Assembly: GCA_947627345.1 (NCBI GenBank)
Contig: CANQVS010000004.1
Coordinates: 37,609-101,608 of the forward strand
Direction: 5' to 3'
Source of the DNA: an uncultured Clostridia bacterium
GTDB lineage: Bacteria > Bacillota > Clostridia > Oscillospirales > Acutalibacteraceae
Length of the DNA stretch: 64,000 nt
Below the pieces are notes generated by a model. That model was not told the DNA's origin and made no database searches. It saw only the letters and a list, made by a program, of their open reading frames with translations. The position numbers were made by a program, and so were the translations under genes. This document shows positions 11,247 through 36,768 of the stretch, piece by piece. The stretch's first letter is position 1, and every line of letters starts with the position of its first letter.

Positions 11247-12023
11247 ATGAGAATTGTAATAAAGCTCGGAACATCAACTTTAGCGCATAAAACGGGACTT
11301 TTAAATATCAAAAGAGTTGAGAAATTGTGCAAGGTTATTTCCGATTTAAAAAACGCGGGAAACGAAATTATCCTTGTTTCTTCAGGCGCAATCGGAATGG
11401 GGCTCGGTAAAATTGGAATTAAAAAACGCCCCGATGATATTCCCACTAAACAGGCCGCCGCCGCTATCGGCCAATGCGAACTGATGTATACCTACGATAA
11501 GCTCTTCTCCGAATACAATCATACCGTAGCGCAGATACTTATGACAGGCGCGTATGTCGCTTTGGAGGATTACGGCAAAAACTTAAATAATACTCTGTTC
11601 AGACTTTTAGAACTCGGCGTTATTCCGATTATAAATGAAAACGATACGGTCACTACCGATGAAATTATTATCGGCGACAACGATACTTTAGGCGCTACAA
11701 TCGCGAATACTGTAAATGCAGATTTGCTGATTATCCTCTCAGATATTGACGGCCTCTATACGGGCGACCCCAATAATGACCCGAGCGCAAAGCGCATTGA
11801 CGCTGTAGATACTATTACAAAGGACATTGAAAATCTTGCAAGCAGCCGCGGTTCCGTACTCGGAACGGGCGGTATGGTTACAAAAATCAACGCCGCAAAA
11901 ATGGTAAATGAAAACGGAATTGATATGGTTGTCGCAAACGGCAGCAATCCCGAAATACTTTATGATATTTTAAACGGCGGCGGAATTTGTACACGCTTTA
12001 AAGGGAGAAAAAATGACAACTAA
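11247..12023 (+). CDS. proB: Glutamate 5-kinase (short form, no PUA domain)
   Basis: VIKLGTS, VSSGAI, PIINEND, GTGGMVTK. Confidence 0.97.
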   Translation: MRIVIKLGTSTLAHKTGLLNIKRVEKLCKVISDLKNAGNEIILVSSGAIGMGLGKIGIKKRPDDIPTKQAAAAIGQCELMYTYDKLFSEYNHTVAQILMTGAYVALEDYGKNLNNTLFRLLELGVIPIINENDTVTTDEIIIGDNDTLGATIANTVNADLLIILSDIDGLYTGDPNNDPSAKRIDAVDTITKDIENLASSRGSVLGTGGMVTKINAAKMVNENGIDMVVANGSNPEILYDILNGGGICTRFKGRKNDN

Positions 12024-13260
12024 AGAATTGCTTATAAAAGCGAAAAACGCAAAATCAAAATTAAACTCTGTTTCCGTTGAGCAAATAAACAGCGCTCTCA
12101 ATTCTATGGCGGACGCGCTGGTTAAAAACACGGATAAAATACTTACGGAAAACGCAAAGGATATTGAGAACGCAAGAGGTACCATCAGCGACGTTATGAT
12201 TGACCGCCTTGCGCTTTCCGAAAAAAGAATTAAGGATATGGCTGACGGAGTAAAAAATGTTGCTCTTCTCCCCTCTCCAATCGGCAGGGTTATTAAGAGA
12301 ACAGAACGTGACGACGGACTTGTCATCGAGAAAACCTCGGTTGCTCTCGGAGTTGTCGCTATAATATATGAAAGCAGGCCGAACGTCACCTCCGACGCAG
12401 CCGCGCTTGCGATAAAAAGCGGTAACGTCTGCGTTCTCCGCTGCGGAAAGGAAGCCCACAAAAGCGCGCAGGCTATTGTAAATGCCCTGCAAAACGGACT
12501 TGAAAACGCAGGTTTAAGCAGAGATTTCGTCCTCCTTGTCGAGGACACAACGCGCGGGAGCGCAAATGAACTTATGACCGCAGACGGATATGTTGACCTT
12601 CTTATTCCGAGGGGCGGAAAGGGCTTAATTACAGCCTGTGTAAACAACGCGACCGTCCCCTGTATTCAGACGGGAACGGGAATCTGCCACATTTATGTTG
12701 ACGAAAGCGCGGATATTGATATGGCTCTAAACATTGTAGAAAACGCCAAAACGAGCCGTCCGTCCGTCTGCAACGCGGAGGAAGTTTTAGTTGTAAACGA
12801 AAAAATAGCGAAGGAATTTCTTCCCAAATTAAAGGAAAGACTGGTTGACAAACGGAGTGAAAATCCCGTTGAACTTAGGCTTGATGACAGAGCGCAAAAA
12901 ATTATAGACGGCACTCCTGCCAAATCAGACGACTTCGATACGGAATTTTTAGACTATATTCTCGCTGTTAAAATCGTTGACAGCGTTGAAGATGCGATTG
13001 AGCATATAAATACCCACTCAACGGGACACAGCGAGGCAATAATAACAGAGGACAGCGTGTCTGCCGACAAATTCACGAGAGGGATTGACAGTTCGGCCGT
13101 TTATGTCAACGCAAGCACACGTTTTACGGACGGCGGAGAGTTTGGTCTGGGGTGCGAAATGGGAATTTCAACTCAAAAACTCCACGCAAGAGGTCCTATG
13201 GGACTTGAGGAGCTTAATACTTATAAATACATCATAAAAGGAACAGGTCAGGTGAGATAA
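12013..13260 (+). CDS. proA: Gamma-glutamyl phosphate reductase
   Basis: IIYESRPNVT, PSVCNAEE, VNASTRFTDG, STQKLHARGPMG. Confidence 0.97.
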   Translation: MTTKELLIKAKNAKSKLNSVSVEQINSALNSMADALVKNTDKILTENAKDIENARGTISDVMIDRLALSEKRIKDMADGVKNVALLPSPIGRVIKRTERDDGLVIEKTSVALGVVAIIYESRPNVTSDAAALAIKSGNVCVLRCGKEAHKSAQAIVNALQNGLENAGLSRDFVLLVEDTTRGSANELMTADGYVDLLIPRGGKGLITACVNNATVPCIQTGTGICHIYVDESADIDMALNIVENAKTSRPSVCNAEEVLVVNEKIAKEFLPKLKERLVDKRSENPVELRLDDRAQKIIDGTPAKSDDFDTEFLDYILAVKIVDSVEDAIEHINTHSTGHSEAIITEDSVSADKFTRGIDSSAVYVNASTRFTDGGEFGLGCEMGISTQKLHARGPMGLEELNTYKYIIKGTGQVR

Positions 13261-14061
13261 ATGCACACATTCGGATTTATCGGCGCGGGAAATATGGGCG
13301 GAGCGCTTGCTAAGGCAGTTTCAAAAAGCACGAAAAATATTTTAATTTCCGACCATTTCTCTGACAAGGCCGAACATCTTGCGGATAAAACAGGCGGTAA
13401 AGCCGTAGATAATATTCAAATCGCAGAAAGATGTCAATATATTTTTCTCGGTGTTAAACCGCAAATGATGTCTGATATGCTTGTAGAAATTAAAGATAAT
13501 TTAAAAAACAGAACCGATGATTTTGTACTTGTTACAATGGCGGCAGGACTTACTATTGAAACAATCCGTGCTATGTCGGGCAGTAATTATAAGGTTATAA
13601 GAATTATGCCTAACACACCCGTAGAAGTCGGCGAGGGGCAAATTCTTTACTGCAAAAGCGATAACGTAACTGATGATGAGCTTGACGCATTTCTTGAAAA
13701 TATGAAATATGCGGGCAGATTGACCGAAATTTCCGAAAGCCTTATGGACGCGGGATGCTCACTGTCGGGCTGCGGACCCGCGTTTGTTTATATGTTCATA
13801 CGCGCGCTTGCACAAGGCGGAATTGAATGCGGAATCGACGAAAAAACCGCTTTGACACTGGCTGCGCAGACTGTACTCGGAAGCTCTAAGCTTTTGATTG
13901 AGAGCGGCGAGGAGCCGTCCGCACTCATTGAAAAGGTCTGCTCCCCGGGAGGCAGTACGATTGAGGGCGTTAAATCTCTCGATAACGACAACCTTGAAGA
14001 TGTAATTATAAACGCTGTTCTTGCCTCTTATGAGAGGAACATTGAACTCGGAAAATCATAA
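13261..14061 (+). CDS. proC: Pyrroline-5-carboxylate reductase
   Basis: GFIGAGNMG, RIMPNTP, SGCGPAF, VCSPGGSTI. Confidence 0.97.
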   Translation: MHTFGFIGAGNMGGALAKAVSKSTKNILISDHFSDKAEHLADKTGGKAVDNIQIAERCQYIFLGVKPQMMSDMLVEIKDNLKNRTDDFVLVTMAAGLTIETIRAMSGSNYKVIRIMPNTPVEVGEGQILYCKSDNVTDDELDAFLENMKYAGRLTEISESLMDAGCSLSGCGPAFVYMFIRALAQGGIECGIDEKTALTLAAQTVLGSSKLLIESGEEPSALIEKVCSPGGSTIEGVKSLDNDNLEDVIINAVLASYERNIELGKS

Positions 14062-14081
14062 AACAAAACAATGGTCAAGCT

Positions 14082-14112
14082 AAAGAATTGCGCCTTTTGG
14101 CGCTTTTCTTTT
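14082..14112 (+). terminator. Probable terminator of proBAC
   Basis: AAAGAA..GCGCC-tttt-GGCGC..TTTTCTTTT. Confidence 0.55.
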
Positions 14113-14253
14113 GCATGATTTCGTCATAATATTATATATTTAAAAACAAATATTAATTTTTCGTCATAAAGGTTGCTATAACCCCTTCTTATATGATATA
14201 ATATTATATAATTATATATCTTTACATTTCGTTTGAAGTGTACGGAGGAGAAT

Positions 14254-15276
14254 ATGGAAAAAATTATTACGTTCGCGGTACCTTGTTATAATTCCGCTGA
14301 ATATATGGACCATTGTATAAACACGCTCCTGTCGGTCGGAGAGGATGCTGAGATAATTCTTGTTGACGATGGTTCCGCAAAGGACAATACTCCCGAAATC
14401 TGTGACAGCTATGCGGAAAAATATCCCAACATTATTAAGGTCATACACCAGGAAAACGGCGGTCACGGCGAGGGTGTTAATCAGGGCTTAAAAAACGCGA
14501 CGGGAACTTATTATAAAGTCGTAGACAGTGACGACTGGCTCGATACCGAGGCTTTACAGAAGGTTATCATCAAGCTAAAAGAACTTGAAAATAAAAATCT
14601 TGATATGATGATTTGCAATTACGTTTATGAGCATGTCGAGGACAATACAACCCACACTATGCACTACAAAAACGTTTTTCCGCAAAATACAGTTTTCTCG
14701 TGGGACGATATAAGCGGTTTCAGCATTTCACAATGCCTGCTTATGCACTCGGTAATCTACAGGACGCAACTCCTTAAAGATTGTAAGGTAGACCTTCCTA
14801 AGCATACATTTTATGTTGACAATATTTTCGTTTACCAGCCGTTACCGTTTGTCAAAAACATTTATTATATGGACCTTGATTTGTACCGTTATTTTATCGG
14901 CAGAGAGGACCAGAGCGTTAACGAAAAGGTTATGGCGTCAAGAATTGACCAACAGCTCCGTGTTACAAAAATTATGATTGACTCTCATAAAATTGACGAT
15001 GTATATAAGGTAAGCAAAAAGCTCGGAAAATATATGAGAAAATACATAACTATGATGATGACAATTTCCAACATTTTCTGCGAGCTTTGCGAATATCCCG
15101 ACAAGGACGAAAAACGCAAAGACCTTTGGAAGTATCTGAAAGACAAAGATAAAAAGCTTTACAACCACGTCAGATTTCATACAATATGGAGCTTTGCAAA
15201 TATTCAGAACACCCCCGGCAGAAAGCTTGCAATATTCCTCTATAGAATTGCAAGAAAAATTTATAAATTTAACTAA
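14254..15276 (+). CDS. Glycosyltransferase family 2
   Basis: VPCYN, ILVDDGS, NGGHGEGVNQG, VVDSDDW; GGAGGAG RBS. Confidence 0.93.
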   Translation: MEKIITFAVPCYNSAEYMDHCINTLLSVGEDAEIILVDDGSAKDNTPEICDSYAEKYPNIIKVIHQENGGHGEGVNQGLKNATGTYYKVVDSDDWLDTEALQKVIIKLKELENKNLDMMICNYVYEHVEDNTTHTMHYKNVFPQNTVFSWDDISGFSISQCLLMHSVIYRTQLLKDCKVDLPKHTFYVDNIFVYQPLPFVKNIYYMDLDLYRYFIGREDQSVNEKVMASRIDQQLRVTKIMIDSHKIDDVYKVSKKLGKYMRKYITMMMTISNIFCELCEYPDKDEKRKDLWKYLKDKDKKLYNHVRFHTIWSFANIQNTPGRKLAIFLYRIARKIYKFN

Positions 15277-15332: not shown

Positions 15333-15361
15333 TTGAATATTACAATTTACCGTGCTATAAT
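15333..15361 (+). promoter_or_regulatory. Sigma-A promoter with extended -10
   Basis: TTGAAT-17-TGcTATAAT. Confidence 0.8.
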
Positions 15362-15367
15362 GATAGT

Positions 15368-15565
15368 GTCAAATAATAATACAATTTAATAATCAATTAA
15401 TAGTTATGATATGTATAATGTCATTATAAGCGGGTATTTTATTTTTAAAAATACTGGCTCTATTTATCATTCCGCTTTAGTGGCATTAATTGATATTGTA
15501 TAATTGTTTGGCGACAATCGGAGCTATGTGTTTTTGGCGTACGACTTCGGTTGTGCGCTTTTTTA
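15368..15565 (+). ncRNA. Structured 5' leader, copy 1 (candidate attenuator or riboswitch)
   Basis: Nested stems by eye; about 60 nt of near-identity with 17369-17430; ends in GCGTACGAC-TTCG-GTTGTGCGC-TTTTTT before the RBS. Confidence 0.7.
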
Positions 15566-15588
15566 TTTTTATTAAAGGAGAAAACAGT

Positions 15589-17154
15589 ATGAAGTTTCAA
15601 GCAAAAAAATCAGTCGGCTTGCTGTTGTCATTTTTAATGATTATCAGCTTATTTACTGCTATGCCATTTACCGCGGGAGCTGTAACATCTGCAATAAGCG
15701 GTGATTTTGGGTACGACATTCTTGACGACGGTACGGCGGAAATTACGTTTTATTACGGAAATGCAACAACCCTCGAACTTCCCAGCACGCTTGACGGATA
15801 TACTGTTACAAGTATAGGAAGTTCTGCATTTTCTTATGAAACACTTACAAGCGTAACAATACCTGACAGCGTTACAAGTATAGGTGATTATGCATTTTAT
15901 GAATGCGCAAGCTTGAAAGATGTAACAATCCCCAACAGTGTTACAAGTATAGGTGTAAGTGCATTTGGATATTGTTCAAACCTTACAAATGTAAAAATAG
16001 GAAATAGAGTTACAAGTATAGGTGATTATGCATTTTGGGTTTGTGAAAGTCTTACAAGTATAACAATCCCCGACAATGTTACAAGTATAGGTGATAGCGC
16101 GTTTAAAGATTGCACAAACCTTACAAACGTAACAATAGGCAACAGTGTTACAAGTATAGGTGATTATGCATTTTATGAATGCACAAGCTTGAAAGATGTA
16201 ACAATCCCCAACAGTGTTACAAGTATAGGTGTAAGTGCATTTGGAAAATGCACAAGTCTTACAAGTGTAAAAATGGGCAATAGTGTTACAAGTATAGGTG
16301 ATTATACATTTTATAATTGTACTAACCTTACAAGCATAACAATTCCCGACAGCGTTACAAATATAGGTGATTATGCATTTTATGAATGCATAAGTCTTAC
16401 AAGTGTAAAAATAGGCAACAGTGTTACAAGTATAGGTTTTGTCGCGTTTAAAGATTGCGCAAGCCTTACAAGTGTAATAATAGGCAACAGTGTTACAAGT
16501 ATAGGAGATTGGGCATTTGAAAATTGCACAAGTCTTAAAAGCGTAACAATTCCGAGTAGCGTTACGAAAATAGATTTTGAGGCGTTTGGATATTATAATG
16601 ATGAAAATGATAAATACTATAAAGTAAAAAACTTTACTATTACAGGCTGCAGCGGTACAGAGGCTGAAAAATACGCAAAGGAAAACGAATTTAAATTTAT
16701 AAATATAGGAACAGACGTCAAACTCAAAAAATCCTCCGCTACTGTTTATGTAAAAGGAACGGCGCAAATCAAAGCGACAGTTAAGAACGGCAAAGGAAAA
16801 ACAACCTATAAAACAAGCAATAAAAAGGTCGCAAAGGTTACTTCAAGCGGAAAGGTGACGGGTATTAAGAAGGGCACGGCAACAATTACCGTAACCAACA
16901 ACGGCGTGTCAAAGAAGTTTAAAGTTACAGTTAAAAACCCGAAGCTGAACAAGAGCAAACTAACTCTGAAAAAAGGAAAATCCTTTAAATTAAGTATTAA
17001 AGGAAAGGTAGGAAATACCAAGTTTACCTCAAGCGACAAAAAGGTTGCGACCGTCAGCAAAAAGGGTAACATTAAAGCCAAGAAGAAAGGCAAAGCTAAA
17101 ATTACCGTAAAGACAAACGGTATGAAACTAAAATGCAAAATTACGGTTAAATAA
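15589..17154 (+). CDS. BspA-type (TpLRR/LRR_5) leucine-rich repeat surface protein with C-terminal tandem Big_2-type modules
   Basis: Signal peptide; about 12 repeats of 23 aa VTSIGxxAFxxCxxLTSVTIPxS; AAAGGAG RBS before ATG 15589. Confidence 0.92.
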   Translation: MKFQAKKSVGLLLSFLMIISLFTAMPFTAGAVTSAISGDFGYDILDDGTAEITFYYGNATTLELPSTLDGYTVTSIGSSAFSYETLTSVTIPDSVTSIGDYAFYECASLKDVTIPNSVTSIGVSAFGYCSNLTNVKIGNRVTSIGDYAFWVCESLTSITIPDNVTSIGDSAFKDCTNLTNVTIGNSVTSIGDYAFYECTSLKDVTIPNSVTSIGVSAFGKCTSLTSVKMGNSVTSIGDYTFYNCTNLTSITIPDSVTNIGDYAFYECISLTSVKIGNSVTSIGFVAFKDCASLTSVIIGNSVTSIGDWAFENCTSLKSVTIPSSVTKIDFEAFGYYNDENDKYYKVKNFTITGCSGTEAEKYAKENEFKFINIGTDVKLKKSSATVYVKGTAQIKATVKNGKGKTTYKTSNKKVAKVTSSGKVTGIKKGTATITVTNNGVSKKFKVTVKNPKLNKSKLTLKKGKSFKLSIKGKVGNTKFTSSDKKVATVSKKGNIKAKKKGKAKITVKTNGMKLKCKITVK

Positions 17155-17164
17155 ATTATGAAAG

Positions 17165-17204
17165 AAAGCACCCTGAATGTCTATGACATTCAGGGTGCTT
17201 TTTT
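17165..17204 (+). terminator. Intrinsic terminator after the LRR gene
   Basis: AAAGCACCCTGAATGTC / GACATTCAGGGTGCTTT plus T-tract. Confidence 0.9.
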
Positions 17205-17225
17205 AGTTATAGTGAAATATTTTTC

Positions 17226-17254
17226 TTGATTCGCATATTAATATATGATATACT
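17226..17254 (+). promoter_or_regulatory. Sigma-A promoter with extended -10
   Basis: TTGATT-17-TGaTATACT. Confidence 0.8.
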
Positions 17255-17260
17255 ATTTTT

Positions 17261-17430
17261 GCCAAACAAATCTGAATAATTTTACTGTTTTTACATAACG
17301 TAAGTTTGTATTTTATGATAAAAATACAGGCTCTTTATTTGCATACTTGCGTTATGTTAATTACAGATTTGTTTGGCGACAATCGGAGCTATGTGTTTTT
17401 GGCGTACGACTTCGGTTGTACGCTTTTTTA
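17261..17430 (+). ncRNA. Structured 5' leader, copy 2
   Basis: GCCAAACAAATCTG (17261-74) is the exact reverse complement of 17364-77; inner stems; same 3' motif and UUCG terminator as copy 1. Confidence 0.7.
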
Positions 17431-17450
17431 TTTTTTATGGGAGGAAGAAA

Positions 17451-18167
17451 ATGAACCGCAAACAAAAAATTATCGTACTTACATACAACGTTCCGCATAG
17501 AAAAACCTATGACGTATTGTGCCTGCTGAAATCAAGAGGATATGAAAATGTTCATATTTACGCAAAACCTATGCACTATAAAAAGAAAAAATACCCTTTA
17601 ATTTGCCACCGCCCCGATATGCCGTATAACATACCGCCAAAGCAAATTTGCACCGCGTTTGATTATGAATATCAGGAAATATCTGAATATGATGATAAAA
17701 GTCTTGATAAAAACGGAATATATCTTATATGCGGAGCAGGTATTCTTCCTGACGATTTTATAAGCAACAGAACAATAATTAATGCTCACCCCGGATATAT
17801 TCCCAATTGCCGTGGGTTAGACGCTTTAAAGTGGGCAATTTGGGACGGCGAACCTATAGGCGTAACCGCCCATTTAATCGGGGATGAGGTTGACGCGGGA
17901 ATTGTTTTAATTAGAAAGACTATAAATGTATCTGCATATGATACCTTTCACTCGGTTGCAACCAAGGTTTACGAAAGTGAAATATCCGCCCTTGTTGACG
18001 CGGTTGAAGAGGTTTGCGAGGGAAGAACTCTCGGAGTTTTTCACGGTAATAATTTTGAGGTACATAAAAGAATGCCTGAATATTTAGAGAAAGATTTGTT
18101 CAAAAAATTTGAACAGTATAAAAAAAGAAATACCGATACAAAAATACTGAAAGGAGATAAAAAATGA
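17451..18167 (+). CDS. Formyltransferase-family protein (PurN/Fmt fold)
   Basis: IINAHPGYIPNCRG..GVTAHLIGDEVDAG; GGGAGG RBS before ATG 17451. Confidence 0.8.
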   Translation: MNRKQKIIVLTYNVPHRKTYDVLCLLKSRGYENVHIYAKPMHYKKKKYPLICHRPDMPYNIPPKQICTAFDYEYQEISEYDDKSLDKNGIYLICGAGILPDDFISNRTIINAHPGYIPNCRGLDALKWAIWDGEPIGVTAHLIGDEVDAGIVLIRKTINVSAYDTFHSVATKVYESEISALVDAVEEVCEGRTLGVFHGNNFEVHKRMPEYLEKDLFKKFEQYKKRNTDTKILKGDKK

Positions 18168-18442
18168 GCTATAATATGAAAGACGTCTACCCTAACTGGG
18201 ACTTTGAATTGCACGGAACTTCTACAATTGAAAATCCGATTGATAACACTTTAATAAAAGTAGAAAAAAACGATAAGAATCTTTTAAATAATTTGACGGG
18301 CCATAAATATTGCGTAATAGTTACAGATAAAGACGAATTGCCCGAAAATAAAAACATAATGACTTACAACTTCTTTTTATATCCTGATGATATTAATCGC
18401 GAATATAAAAGAATTAAAAGTAAAATAAAAGAAAATTCTTAA
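18164..18442 (+). CDS. 92 aa AT-rich hypothetical protein, possibly a truncated acyltransferase N-terminal domain
   Basis: Coupled to the formyltransferase stop; faint LpxD N-terminal-like pattern by eye only. Confidence 0.35.
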   Translation: MSYNMKDVYPNWDFELHGTSTIENPIDNTLIKVEKNDKNLLNNLTGHKYCVIVTDKDELPENKNIMTYNFFLYPDDINREYKRIKSKIKENS

Positions 18443-18488
18443 TTTTAAAACCTTAAATTTATATTAAATAAGGCGTATGGGTATCCTT

Positions 18489-18937
18489 GGGGGATATGAA
18501 TTGTCAGAAAGAATACGTTGTTTGACGTGGAGATAAAAAGCTGAACCTATTTCCTATATTCAAAAAAAGATAGAGAAACAATCACTCGGGGGATATGAAC
18601 TGTCAGAAAAAACGCGTTGTTTGATGTGGAGATAAAAAGCTGAACCTATTTCCTATATTCAAAACAAGATAGAGAAACAATCACTCGGGGGATATGAATT
18701 GTCAGAAAAAACGCGTTGTTTGACGTGGAGATAAAAAAATGACCATATTTCCTATATTCAAAACAAGATAGAGAAACAATCACTCGGGGGATATGAACTG
18801 TCAGAAAGAATACGTTGTTTGACGTGGAGATAAAAAGCTGGACCTATTTCCTATATTCAAAACAAGATAGAGAAACAATAACTCGGGAGTATGAATTGCC
18901 GAAGAATAACCGCATTGTTTTATGTAGAGATAAAAAA
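18489..18937. repeat. Tandem array of 99 bp units (4 full plus 1 partial)
   Basis: Unit starts at 18489, 18588, 18687, 18786 and 18885; near-identical over the whole unit; stop codons in all six frames of the unit. Confidence 0.95.
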
Positions 18938-18966
18938 GGACCGAAAGCAATGCTTTCGGCCTTTTT
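18932..18966 (-). terminator. tuf terminator (bidirectional appearance)
   Basis: AAAAAAGG-a-CCGAAAGCA-a-TGCTTTCGG-CCTTTTT. Confidence 0.85.
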
Positions 18967-18978
18967 ATGTGATTTTAA

Positions 18979-20187
18979 TTATTCGTTGATAGCGATAACT
19001 GCGCCTGAACCTACTGTTCTACCGCCTTCACGGATAGCGAAACGAAGACCAACTTCGATAGCGATAGGAGTGATAAGCTCAACGTCCATTTCTACGTTAT
19101 CACCGGGCATACACATCTCTGTTCCCTCGGGAAGAGTGATTGTACCAGTAACGTCAGTTGTTCTGAAATAGAACTGAGGACGATAGTTGTTAAAGAACGG
19201 TGTATGACGGCCACCCTCGTCCTTAGTAAGAACGTAAACCTGACCGCGGAACTTTGTGTGAGGATTGATAGAACCGGGCTTAGCAAGAACCTGTCCTCTT
19301 TCAATCTCTGTTCTCTGAACACCACGGAGAAGTGCGCCAACGTTGTCGCCTGCCTCAGCATAGTCAAGAGTCTTTCTGAACATCTCAAGACCTGTAACAA
19401 CAACCTTACGTCTTTCCTCTGTAAGACCAACGATTTCAACCTCGTCGTTAGTGTTAATCTTTCCTCTTTCAACTCTACCTGTAGCAACAGTACCACGACC
19501 TGTGATAGTGAATACGTCCTCGACAGGCATAATGAACGGAAGGTCAGACTTTCTCTCAGGAGTAGGAATATACTCGTCTACAGCGTCCATAAGCTTGTGG
19601 ATGCACTCATACTCAGGAGCGTTAGGATCAGTAGATGTACACTGAAGTGCAACATATGCAGAACCGGGGATGATAGGTGTATCGTCGCCGGGGAACTCAT
19701 ACTCGTTAAGAATATCTCTGATTTCCATCTCTACGAGCTCAAGAAGCTCGGGGTCATCAACCTGGTCAGTCTTGTTCATAAATACAACAATGTAAGGAAC
19801 GCCAACCTGACGTGAAAGAAGAATATGCTCTCTTGTCTGAGGCATAGGACCGTCAGCAGCAGAAACAACGAGGATAGCGCCGTCCATCTGAGCAGCACCT
19901 GTAATCATATTCTTAACGTAGTCGGCATGTCCGGGGCAGTCAACGTGAGCATAGTGACGCTTTTCTGTTTGATACTCAACGTGAGCTGTGTTGATTGTGA
20001 TACCACGCTCTCTCTCTTCGGGAGCCTTATCAATGTTAGCATAATCAACAAAGTCGGCAGCAGACGAATCAGTAAGGCTAAGTACCTTTGTGATAGCAGC
20101 CGTGAGGGTTGTCTTACCATGGTCAACGTGACCGATGGTACCAATGTTTACATGCGGTTTATTTCTTTCAAATTTCTCTCTTGCCAT
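18979..20187 (-). CDS. tuf: Elongation factor Tu
   Basis: [25 protein letters not shown]. Confidence 0.99.
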
Positions 20188-20269
20188 TTGAAAAAATCCT
20201 CCTTTAAATTAAATTTTACATAGCTATTTTAGCAATTAATTGGAAAAATTGCAATAGTTTTTTTAATGT

Positions 20270-22363
20270 TTAGTCTTTCTTTGCCTTTTCAGACATAATT
20301 TTCTCAGCAATACTTCTCGGAACTTCCGCATATGTGTCGGGTTCCATTACATATTGGCCTCTGCCCTGTGTGATAGAACGCATATCAGTAGCGTAGCCGA
20401 ACATCTCCGAAAGCGGAACCTGCGCGGTAATTCTGTCAGTGCCGTTTTCTGATTCCGTACCCTGTACCATACCGCGACGGCTGTTAAGGTCGCCGATAAC
20501 TCCTCCCATATACTCATCGGGAACAGTAACAGAAACCTTCATAAGGGGTTCCAAAAGAACAGGGTCAGCTTTCTTCATAGCGTCCTTAAACGCCATAGAA
20601 CCCGCAATCTTAAACGCCATTTCGGATGAATCGACCTCGTGATAAGAACCGTCGTAAAGCTCTACTCTACAGTCAACTACATTGTATCCTGCAACAACAC
20701 CGCTCTGCATAGCGCCCTGAATACCCTGGTCAACAGCAGGAATGTATTCCTTGGGAATTGCACCGCCGACAACCTTGTTCTCAAACACATAGCCCTCTCC
20801 GGGGTTCGGAAATACATTAATCTTAACGTGACCGTACTGACCCTTACCGCCTGACTGACGGGCATACTTGCAATCTACAGAAGCCTCTTTGCGGATAGTT
20901 TCCTTATAAGCAACCTGAGGTTTACCGATGTTAGCTTCAACCTTGAACTCACGAAGAAGTCTGTCTACGATAATCTCAAGATGTAACTCGCCCATACCTG
21001 CAATGATAGTCTGACCTGTCTCTTCGTCTGTATAAGCCTTAAATGTCGGGTCTTCTTCGGCGAGTTTCGCAAGCGCGATACCCATTTTTTCCTGACCCGC
21101 CTTTGTTTTAGGCTCAATGGCTACACGGATAACGGGATCGGGGAACTCCATAGACTCAAGAATTACAGGATGGTCTTCATCGCAGAGTGTATCTCCTGTT
21201 GTAGTGTTTTTAAGACCAACGGCAGCGGCAATATCACCTGAATATACAATATCAAGGTCTTTTCTGTCGTTTGCGTGCATCTGAAGAATACGTCCGACTC
21301 TTTCACGATTTCCTTTTACGGAGTTGTAAACTGCGGAACCCTTAGCAAGAGTACCGGAATAAACTCTGAAGAAACAAAGCTTACCTACAAACGGGTCGGT
21401 AGCAATCTTAAATGCTAAAGCAGAGAACGGCTCGCTGTCAGATGAAGGTCTTTCAACCTCCTCGTTGGTTTCGGGATCGATACCCTTAATTGCGGGAACG
21501 TCTACGGGAGACGGCATATAATCTACAATTGCGTCGAGAAGTTTCTGAACTCCCTTGTTACGGTAGGAAGTACCGCAGGTTACGGGAACCATTGTATTCT
21601 CGATTGTGCATTTACGGATTGTAGCCTTAATTTCTTCCTCTGTAAGCTCCTCGCCCGAAAAATATTTTTCCATAAGAGCCTCGTCCTGCTCCGCAACAGC
21701 CTCGATAAGCTCATCATGGTATTTCTGCGCTAATTCTTTCATATCCTCGGGAATTTCTTCCTCTCTCATATCCTTGCCGAGGTCGTCATAATAAACCTCA
21801 GCCTTCATAGATACGAGGTCGATAATTCCCTTGAAAGTATCTTCTACACCGATAGGAAGCTGAATAGGAACAGCGTTACACTTTAATCTGTCCTTCATCA
21901 TCTGAACAACTCTGTAGAAGTCAGCGCCCATAATGTCCATTTTATTTACATAGACCATTCTCGGAACTCCGTAGTTATCAGCCTGACGCCATACAGTTTC
22001 CGACTGAGGCTCAACGCCCCCCTTAGCGCAGAGAACTGTTACAGAGCCGTCAAGCACACGAAGTGAACGCTCAACCTCAACTGTGAAGTCAACGTGTCCC
22101 GGTGTATCAATGATGTTAATTCTTACATCGTTTTTCTTACTGTCTTTCCAGAAACAAGTTGTAGCAGCGGAGGTAATTGTAATACCTCTCTCCTGCTCCT
22201 GTACCATCCAGTCCATCGTAGCGCCACCGTCATGGGTTTCGCCAATTTTATGGTTGATACCTGTGTAGAACAGGATTCTTTCTGTCGTTGTCGTTTTACC
22301 GGCGTCTATGTGAGCCATAATGCCGATGTTTCTGGTCTGTTCGAGTGATACTTGTCTTGACAT
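20270..22363 (-). CDS. fusA: Elongation factor G
   Basis: [17 protein letters not shown]; RBS places the start at MSRQV. Confidence 0.99.
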
Positions 22364-22396
22364 AAAATATCCTCCTCTCAAATTACCTTTTTTACA

Positions 22397-25860: not shown

Positions 25861-25961
25861 CAGAACCTTTCCTGACTATCCAAAGTAAATAGAATCTCAA
25901 ACGTCTGGGGGATATGAAGTATCAGATAGGAGCTTTAATGTCTGACGCAGATATATAAAAA
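25861..25961. repeat. Terminator-adjacent repeat, copy C
   Basis: CAGAACC..CTATCCAAAGTAA..GGGGGATATGAA..TCAGA..TGACGCAGATATATAAAAA abutting the hairpin TCCGAGC..GCTTGGA. Confidence 0.85.
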
Positions 25962-26023
25962 TCCGAGCCATACCGTACGGTACAGCTTGGATTTTGTCTT
26001 AATTTGGAAATGGAGTAGAATTT

Positions 26024-29947: not shown

Positions 29948-30027
29948 AAAGTAAGATAGATGAAGATACGTTTTGAAAATATGATTTTCCGAGAGGAACT
30001 GCAATATTTGACGTGGATATATAAAAA
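29948..30027. repeat. Terminator-adjacent repeat, copy E
   Basis: AAAGTAAGATAGA..GAGAGGAACTGCAATATTTGACGTGGATATATAAAAA abutting the hairpin GATTCCAAA..TTTGGAATC (30028-30057). Confidence 0.8.
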
Positions 30028-30106
30028 GATTCCAAAGCCGAATAGGGTTTTGGAATCTTTTAACTTATAACTTATTTAATGAATATTTTAATGAATATTA
30101 AAAATA

Positions 30107-36651: not shown

Positions 36652-36742
36652 TAAAACCTTTAATATATACAAAACATAGGAAGATATGTTTGAAAAACAG
36701 ATTTTAAAAAGCTCTGTATTGTCTGACGCGGATATATAAAAA
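36652..36742. repeat. Terminator-adjacent repeat, copy F
   Basis: AACCTT..ATACAAAAC..TGTCTGACGCGGATATATAAAAA abutting GAGGTTGC-aaac-GCAACCTC. Confidence 0.7.
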
Positions 36743-36768
36743 GAGGTTGCAAACGCAACCTCCTTTTT
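36738..36768 (-). terminator. rny terminator
   Basis: AAAAAGAGGTTGC-aaac-GCAACCTC-CTTTTT. Confidence 0.85.

Follow-up and report, generated by a model that had tools for sequence, protein, structure and literature searches.

Why should two genes of unrelated function in one genome carry the same leader? The question is raised by a 64,000-nt stretch from an uncultured Clostridia bacterium of the family Acutalibacteraceae (assembly GCA_947627345.1, contig CANQVS010000004.1, positions 37,609 to 101,608), here called the window. In it, a gene for a leucine-rich repeat (LRR) surface protein and a gene for a formyltransferase-like protein follow leaders (copy 1, 15333-15588; copy 2, 17226-17450) in which an earlier reading of the sequence, here the original prediction, had seen one architecture and a candidate new attenuator or riboswitch. 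Our analyses show that the two leaders are genuine members of a widespread, uncatalogued family of cis-regulatory RNAs of gut and rumen Clostridia. In addition, we consider it likely that they are promoter-fixed transcription attenuators with three states, in which a tail behind a long helical rod would swap partners.

The common architecture is borne out by pairwise alignment, in which 15495-15570 and 17360-17435 are 93% identical across 76 nt, and the two leaders share a near-identical 3' block of about 67 nt. The unrelated nature of the two genes was confirmed as well, with LRR_5/Big_2 in one product and Formyl_trans_N in the other. The genome of 1.83 Mb holds seven copies of the leader, on contigs C4 (twice), C32, C27, C22, C12 and C10, five with a close and two with a diverged 3' block. 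Each of them has an extended -10 element and a first helix (P1) of different sequence, and their tails are near-identical. A pattern search across 200 genomes of the bacterial family to which this one belongs identified about five convincing homologues, which lie in other genera. In GTDB species genomes, a scan for one exact pattern listed at least 116 stretches. All matches listed come from metagenome-assembled genomes of Clostridia, labelled Acutalibacteraceae, Oscillospiraceae, Ruminococcaceae, Eubacteriales and similar, from the guts of humans, rodents, rabbits and ruminants.

A covariance model (R1) was built for the part from helix P3 to the terminator only, because full-length MAFFT alignments misplace the variable inserts of helices P1b and P2; P1 was handled separately by means of anchored 12-nt arms. 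RNAalifold, applied to a MAFFT alignment of 49 typical members, recovers only P1 and the terminator. Among the stretches listed, R1 found 92 full-length matches of 55-133 bits, with nothing between 55 bits and the noise at 28.7 bits or less. The window copies score 128.0 and 118.4 bits (model positions 1-143); R1 was partly built from them, and the independent part is the other 80 or more matches. The family counts given here (92, 90, 84 and 82 copies) rest on the matches listed from one exact pattern. With seven copies in the genome and 92 matches elsewhere, the likeness of the leaders is far beyond chance.

The original prediction had failed to place the leader in any known riboswitch class, and the catalogues agree. 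At the gathering score, neither the window nor 18 further loci (about 21 copies) match any family of Rfam 15, and a known Rfam family was therefore rejected; at E values up to 10 the leaders remain uncovered, except for a 19-bit freshwater-2 match on the terminator. A description of the motif was not found in literature searches, which does not disprove that one exists.

The original prediction had also placed each leader behind a near-consensus extended -10 promoter, with a G 7 nt past the -10 opening P1. A consensus scan found both promoters with their TG, the first bases of P1 are G15368 and G17261, and the same spacing runs through the family. A -10 hexamer stands ahead of P1 in 84 of 90 copies, with the TG extension in 79, and in 79 of the 84 exactly 6 nt lie between the hexamer and the first G of P1. 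This fixed gap indicates that the RNA starts at the first base pair of P1, so that the 5' triphosphate end would always be the first pair of a helix of about 12 bp. P1 at the triphosphate end is likely a 5' stabiliser, and promoter and RNA evolve as a single cassette.

Members of the family are about 160-230 nt long. From P1 they run through a hinge, P1b and P2 to P3 in one long bulged rod. There is no junction of several helices, and on this point the original prediction, with its conserved loops on covarying stems, needs correction. The rod alone has a predicted median energy of -43.9 kcal/mol. P1 is usually 11-12 bp, of the form GCGACACAAyu/...UUGUGUCGC, with variants such as GCCAAAC/GUUUGGC, GCCACAC/GUGUGGC and GCAGCAC/GUGCUGC. 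The hinge is an asymmetric loop with AAUA on its 5' side and 0-4 nt on its 3' side; a kink-turn or loop-E motif at this place was rejected because the 3' side varies in length and conserved G-A pairs are absent. P1b and P2 are variable in sequence and at times carry extra hairpins, as in window copy 1. P3 has the consensus GYRUUUUU/AAAAAYRC, and the 3' arms of P3 and P2 are separated by a bulge of about 15 nt (nn-RCUCY-nUUUU-sgc), the CUC of which is wholly unpaired in 44 of 83 minimum free energy (MFE) structures and can be exposed at a cost of at most 1.5 kcal/mol. After P1 comes the tail, RRCAAU-YGGAGY-UAUGYGUUUUU, and then the terminator, commonly GUGCGUAGC-UUCG-GCUGCGCAC, with the U-tract and, 10-30 nt on, the ribosome-binding site (RBS).

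Most of these parts had been seen correctly in the window. P1 (10 bp in copy 1, two of them G-U, and a perfect 14 bp in copy 2), P3 in both copies and a UUCG-loop terminator directly ahead of the RBS (10-bp stems with T-runs, 15536-15559 and 17401-17424) were all recovered. P2, said to differ in sequence and yet to stay paired, is present in the MFE structure of copy 2; the MFE structure of copy 1 draws this region differently, although the family-type GCGG/CCGC pairing is available in its sequence. Both copies have much more stable predicted folds than their shuffled controls, with z = -5.4 for copy 1 and -7.8 for copy 2.

Compensatory changes across the family support the stems. For P1, 96% of the cells are paired, nine of the 12 pairs have changed on both sides and none of 500 shuffles reached the score; for P3 together with the terminator the figures are 95.4%, 17 of 19 pairs and again none of 500. 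The terminator alone is 99.6% paired, with changes on both sides in all nine of its pairs. The covariance model and homologue search that the original prediction had called for have thus given covariation of P1, P3, the terminator and also of an alternative helix.

This alternative helix belongs to the tail, and the covariation supports a model of two competing helices at the same bases. The first competitor that had been predicted, AAAAATACnGGCTCT with GGAGCTATGTGTTTTT, corresponds to a putative anti-antiterminator, the tail pairing with the P3 3' arm plus RCUCY of the bulge. It is 91.7% paired, four of its 15 pairs have changed on both sides, and when it was shuffled jointly with the terminator no shuffle of 500 reached the score. 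At columns 43/149 (R of AAAAAYRC and Y of GYGUUUUU) the combination is G-C 49 times, A-U 29, G-U 10 and A-C 0 (Fisher 4e-15), and the toehold pair 49/144, the fifth of GGAGY/RCUCY, is G-C 38 or A-U 15 times (Fisher 3e-8). The same purine of AAAAAYRC pairs more loosely with the P3 5' arm (U-G 31, U-A 24, C-G 22), suggesting that the invading tail helix is tuned as the stronger one.

A second competitor had been described as GCGACAATCG with the 3' arm of the terminator. A rival of the terminator does exist, but it is mainly the tail UCGGAGCUAUGUG with the 5' arm and loop. Folding of the nascent RNA was predicted from the end of P1 up to the second base behind the terminator loop. In these folds UCGGAGYUAUGYG and the terminator 5' arm plus loop form a hairpin of 12-13 bp, and 82 of 89 copies have the four GGAG bases all paired. 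This candidate antiterminator is 93% paired over 13 columns, against 17-50% in slid registers. Divergent terminators preserve the pairing by matching changes. The C10 copy has the tail UCUGAGG..UUGUGU, the bulge CCUCA and the terminator GCGCGG-UUCCUCGGA; the C12 copy and L082 have the terminator GCACAGCAC-YGA-GUGCUGUGC, and L070_1811 has the tail UCGAGGUCGUG with the terminator GCGCGGCUUCGG. A weaker association of tail position 134 with terminator position 205 (Fisher 0.004) would lengthen the helix into the 3' arm.

Terminator, antiterminator and anti-antiterminator can be drawn in nearly all 92 copies from sequence and predicted folding, which is consistent with the attenuator of mutually exclusive helices that had been predicted. 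The median energies are -7.7 kcal/mol for the P3 hairpin, -14.5 for the tail-rod duplex, -14.2 for the antiterminator and -15.3 for the terminator, and the median difference between the last two is 0.9 kcal/mol. The most stable end state would be the tail on the rod together with the terminator, so that read-through would have to be won kinetically.

In the mechanism that we propose, a strong sigma-A-type promoter would start the RNA at the first base of P1, and the nascent RNA would fold into the rod, the bulge of about 15 nt on its 3' side exposing RCUCY. A GGAGY/RCUCY contact of 4-5 bp could then serve as a toehold from which the tail would displace the P3 5' arm, giving the anti-antiterminator; the other partner open to the tail would be the terminator 5' arm plus loop, in an antiterminator of about 13 bp. 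Once the tail was captured by the rod, the terminator hairpin would form and transcription would stop 10-30 nt ahead of the RBS. If the tail were still free when the terminator 5' arm emerged, the antiterminator would form as soon as GCUUC was available, and the polymerase would read into the gene. About 30 paired positions, or in the median 40 nt along the 3' strand, lie between the bulge and the start of the tail, and the linker has only 7 nt. A rod of about 30 bp and a linker this short imply that capture probably needs bending of the hinge or opening of P1, and it is here that a signal, whether protein, ligand or transcription speed, may act. The read-through mRNA would also gain stability from P1 at its very 5' end. 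We infer that termination is conditional, and in the same way infer the default state and what tips the balance. Leader-peptide attenuation is unlikely, since the 5' end is paired from +1, the spacing of GGAG-nU-NUG in the tail is only 2 nt and these bases covary as a helix.

Several points weigh against the three-state mechanism. The covariation of the antiterminator is not significant in the 92-row alignment (9/500 and 289/500 shuffles), because both of its sides are conserved; this helix is backed by conservation and a few compensatory cases. In both window copies the alternative hairpin reaches the U-tract and might itself terminate. A rod with a single bulge is an unusual sensor, and no sensor was identified. 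The P1 5' arms were selected by complementarity, for which the constant distance to the -10 provides an independent check. Finally, sampling by an exact pattern censors the diversity of the tails, and the rows are phylogenetically related, so that the shuffle and Fisher figures overstate independence.

Table. Parts of the two leaders in the window and the genes that follow them (window coordinates).
Feature	Position	Strand	Sequence, basis or product
Copy 1 promoter, extended -10	15333..15361	+	TTGAAT, 17-nt spacer, TGcTATAAT; consensus scan
Copy 1 rod, entire	15368..15512	+	Folding; variable extra helices between P1 and P2
Copy 1 P1	15368-77 / 15503-12	+	GTCAAATAAT / ATTGTTTGGC; 10 bp including two G-U pairs
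Copy 1 P2, family-type	15430-33 / 15472-75	+	GCGG / CCGC; encloses P3 and GCTCT bulge
Copy 1 P3	15434-40 / 15448-54	+	GTATTTT / AAAATAC; covariation
Copy 1 3'-side bulge	15455-71	+	GCTCT at 15457-61; exposed in rod folds
Copy 1 tail, putative swapped strand	15513..15535	+	GACAATCGGAGCTATGTGTTTTT; covariation and predicted folding
Copy 1 tail partner, putative anti-antiterminator	15447-61	+	P3 3' arm plus bulge; covariation
Copy 1 tail partner, putative antiterminator	15517-29 (tail) / 15537-51	+	Terminator 5' arm plus loop; predicted fold
Copy 1 intrinsic terminator	15536..15565 (hairpin 15536-15559)	+	GGCGTACGAC-TTCG-GTTGTGCGC; 10-bp stem, T-run
Copy 1 RBS and gene	15575..17154 (ATG 15589)	+	521-aa secreted BspA-type LRR protein (LRR_5) plus Big_2
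Copy 2 promoter, extended -10	17226..17254	+	TTGATT, 17-nt spacer, TGaTATACT; consensus scan
Copy 2 rod, entire	17261..17377	+	Folding, covariation
Copy 2 P1	17261-74 / 17364-77	+	GCCAAACAAATCTG / CAGATTTGTTTGGC; perfect 14 bp
Copy 2 P2	17293-305 / 17345-57	+	In MFE structure
Copy 2 P3	17306-14 / 17320-28	+	TTGTATTTT / AAAAATACA; covariation
Copy 2 bulge	17329-44	+	GCTCT at 17330-34; rod fold
Copy 2 tail	17378..17400	+	GACAATCGGAGCTATGTGTTTTT, as in copy 1
Copy 2 tail partners, putative	17320-34 (anti-antiterminator) or 17402-16 with tail bases 17382-94 (antiterminator)	+	Covariation, folding
Copy 2 intrinsic terminator	17401..17430 (hairpin 17401-17424)	+	GGCGTACGAC-TTCG-GTTGTACGC; 10-bp stem, T-run
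Copy 2 RBS and gene	17440..18167 (ATG 17451)	+	238-aa Formyl_trans_N-domain protein
Open reading frame after copy 2 gene	18164-18442	+	92 aa

The downstream genes, which the original prediction had proposed to tabulate, are diverse. An RBS and a same-strand open reading frame (ORF) directly follow the U-tract in 82 of the 92 copies, and about 10 have no ORF directly behind. Twenty-three of the 82 products fall into one BLAST cluster that includes the window LRR_5 protein (BspA-type LRR; the window protein is the only member that was run against Pfam), and about 50 have signal-peptide or lipoprotein-like N-termini, the 521-aa protein behind copy 1 with its hydrophobic, signal-peptide-like N-terminal segment being an example. 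Among the other products are Flg_new repeat proteins, DUF6273 and bPH_1 proteins, zinc-ribbon proteins, a radical-SAM protein, an AMP-binding enzyme, an ABC transporter and, judged by eye, an XRE-like regulator, besides many proteins of less than 100 aa. Of the seven genes behind the leaders in the genome studied, two encode LRR proteins and one is the formyltransferase-like gene; the others encode an NPCBM/fn3 protein, a further secreted protein, a small membrane protein and a protein with a weak, sub-threshold likeness to YpsA/SLOG. Generally, the downstream units are single, diverse genes; no shared pathway that would name a ligand emerges from the 82 products, and the regulon looks like a global or envelope-related one. 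Two complete tandem leaders, each with its own promoter, precede one gene at L104 (1184-1314 and 1473-1600), an arrangement that recalls tandem riboswitches, and at L076 (6657-6795 and 6454-6586, minus strand).

As to what would trigger the switch, we give a protein, a small ligand and a rate or physical cue roughly equal weight. A protein-operated attenuator, in which an RNA-binding protein on the rod, hinge, bulge or tail stabilises one state by PyrR-like logic, is possible rather than probable. The architecture of anti-antiterminator, antiterminator and terminator is that of the PyrR-controlled pyr leaders of Bacillus subtilis, which likewise have three overlapping helices in series and a terminator just ahead of the coding region, and in which the upstream structure decides whether the middle strand can sequester the terminator 5' arm. 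In addition, P1 (GCGACACAA), hinge and linker are conserved in sequence and not just in pairing, which would suit recognition by a protein, and the heterogeneous regulon would fit a global regulator. However, no candidate protein was identified, and the PyrR site model has no match on the leaders: RF00515 reaches only 23.8 bits, against a gathering score of 54, and does so outside the leaders, where the LRR gene ends. The genes behind this family are LRR, formyltransferase-like and other genes instead of pyr genes; its RNA starts exactly at P1, and its anti-antiterminator would arise by invasion of an existing hairpin, P3, from the bulge toehold. The leaders thus appear to work by a familiar attenuation logic, in a design whose strand exchange is unusual.

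LoaP or another NusG paralog, to which the original prediction had pointed, would be a special case of protein control. In LoaP-dependent leaders, which precede genes for extracellular products, a hairpin with a UNCG-type loop is combined with a leader terminator, and both the loop type and the leader terminator recur here. The UUCG loop of the present family, by contrast, belongs to the terminator and is explained by tail pairing. Searches of the genome by phmmer, with E. coli NusG and with the genome's own NusG, gave one NusG-like ORF and the next at E >1, a search of limited sensitivity, and the targets are single genes instead of long operons. With no NusG paralog found and no long polysaccharide or polyketide operons downstream, LoaP was rejected and is an unlikely trigger.

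Somewhat more doubtful than protein control is a new riboswitch for a small molecule or ion, in which rod, bulge and tail pseudoknot would form the aptamer and the ligand would set tail capture; the mixed regulon would then imply a ligand that carries a global signal, for example an ion or a nucleotide messenger. Unpaired bases are strongly conserved (AAUA of the hinge, RCUCY-nUUUU of the bulge, CAAU of the linker), genomes carry several copies before genes for surface and small proteins, as with the riboswitches for cyclic di-GMP (c-di-GMP), tandem copies exist (L104, L076) and no known class matches, all of which speaks for it, but the single rod has neither a multi-helix junction nor an obvious pocket, and the downstream genes point to no metabolite. 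The expression platforms of S-box/SAM-I riboswitches and T-box leaders are alike in their promoter-proximal position, their terminator/antiterminator competition, their several copies per genome and a closing helix P1 that has the switching strand directly next to its 3' side. They differ from this family, which matches no Rfam riboswitch or T-box, has a single bulged rod instead of a junction as its sensor part, and controls a regulon that forms no pathway. Moreover, conservation here extends across families to the terminator sequence itself, because it must match the tail. The regulons of c-di-GMP-I and -II riboswitches in Clostridia likewise have many copies, which stand before genes for surface proteins, adhesins and small membrane proteins that share no function. 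However, there is no match to these riboswitches in sequence or structure (GEMM-I/II in Rfam), and a regex scan of the genome, which is 97.65% complete, for [GAS]G[DE]EF, a motif scan and not a profile, revealed no GGDEF-motif protein; it gave only four ORFs with the pentapeptide, one reading GAGDEF rather than GGDEF and none with the usual arginine two residues before. c-di-GMP was therefore rejected and, like LoaP, is unlikely to be the trigger.

Less plausible again, and in our judgement unlikely, is a factor-independent kinetic device, set by elongation and pausing through nucleoside triphosphate pools and U-runs, by temperature or by ions, or a fixed attenuator that would combine a constant low read-through with a protective 5' helix for the mRNA. 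The U-runs in the P3 5' arm, bulge, tail and terminator, the near-equal energies of antiterminator and terminator, the 5' end fixed inside P1 and the failure to find a sensor agree with it. However, the U-runs are also accounted for by pairing with A-runs, and a constant attenuator needs no three mutually constrained partners kept by covariation.

It is quite improbable that the terminated RNA of 160-230 nt is itself the product, a trans-acting small RNA (for example on sister leaders through tail and bulge) with incidental read-through: a strong promoter and terminator would give an abundant, stable RNA, seven copies in one genome have near-identical tails and about 10 of the 92 copies lack an ORF directly behind, but the RBS and same-strand ORF within about 10-30 nt in the other 82 leave no space for another promoter, and the diverged C10 copy has changed tail, bulge and terminator top together, as cis pairing predicts. 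A dead repeat or mobile DNA was rejected because the place and strand of the leaders, their spacing from the promoter and their compensatory changes all speak for selection on the RNA. A mainly phage-borne element was rejected as well, since the exact pattern has only one match in IMG/VR and two, on unannotated virome contigs, in INPHARED.

The surroundings of the leaders in the window are those of an ordinary chromosome. Upstream, 12013-15276 holds an aldehyde dehydrogenase-family gene, a P5C (pyrroline-5-carboxylate) reductase gene (proC-like) and a family 2 (GT2) glycosyltransferase gene, and downstream, 18979-22381 holds tuf and fusA on the minus strand. Amid these housekeeping genes, the two leader cassettes with the LRR and formyltransferase-like genes resemble an inserted accessory patch. 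A Thr_leader match at 17090-17204, covering the end of the LRR gene and its terminator, stays below threshold at 32.7 bits (gathering score 55) and was rejected as false, since it reflects no more than a strong terminator hairpin, AGCACCCTGAATG...CATTCAGGGTGCTTTTTT. Directly after the formyltransferase-like operon, 18486-18980 holds four tandem units of about 99 nt, each with GGGGGATATGAAnTGTCAGAnAG...TTGTTTGACGTGGAGATAAAAA. Single related copies of the 3' part of this unit lie at 127-157, 25933-25963, 29999-30029 and 36714-36744, each directly before a terminator-like hairpin at the 3' end of a gene. The unit has no Rfam match in the 64-kb window and could be a 3'-end RNA element or a tiny-ORF cassette. 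Outside the window, at C12:55574-55611, a lone leader terminator, GGCGTACGACTTCGGTTATACGC with a T-run, occurs with no other part of the leader; two direct repeats of about 110 nt precede it, and it lies about 200 nt upstream of the diverged C12 leader.

A further reading, tentative at best, is that the leaders are RNA sensors of a new class that respond to a global signal, or that the abundant terminated leaders titrate each other in trans; either way they would coordinate a regulon of surface-protein and accessory genes in uncultured Clostridia of gut and rumen. As a sensor class, they would use the bulge as a toehold for intramolecular strand displacement, and the hinge in the 30-bp rod would gate the access of the tail, the gate being set by ligand, protein or transcription speed.

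For RNA biology, the three-state attenuator would represent a natural toehold-style strand exchange among three partners. Promoter, leader and terminator together form one cassette of about 250 bp that is easily moved into reporters. Oscillospirales are dominant and poorly studied bacteria of gut and rumen, and to our knowledge almost nothing has been learned about how their surface proteins are regulated. That one conserved leader stands before genes for lipoproteins, adhesin-like LRR proteins of the BspA type and many small proteins in more than 100 species points to a shared, undescribed circuit in these bacteria.

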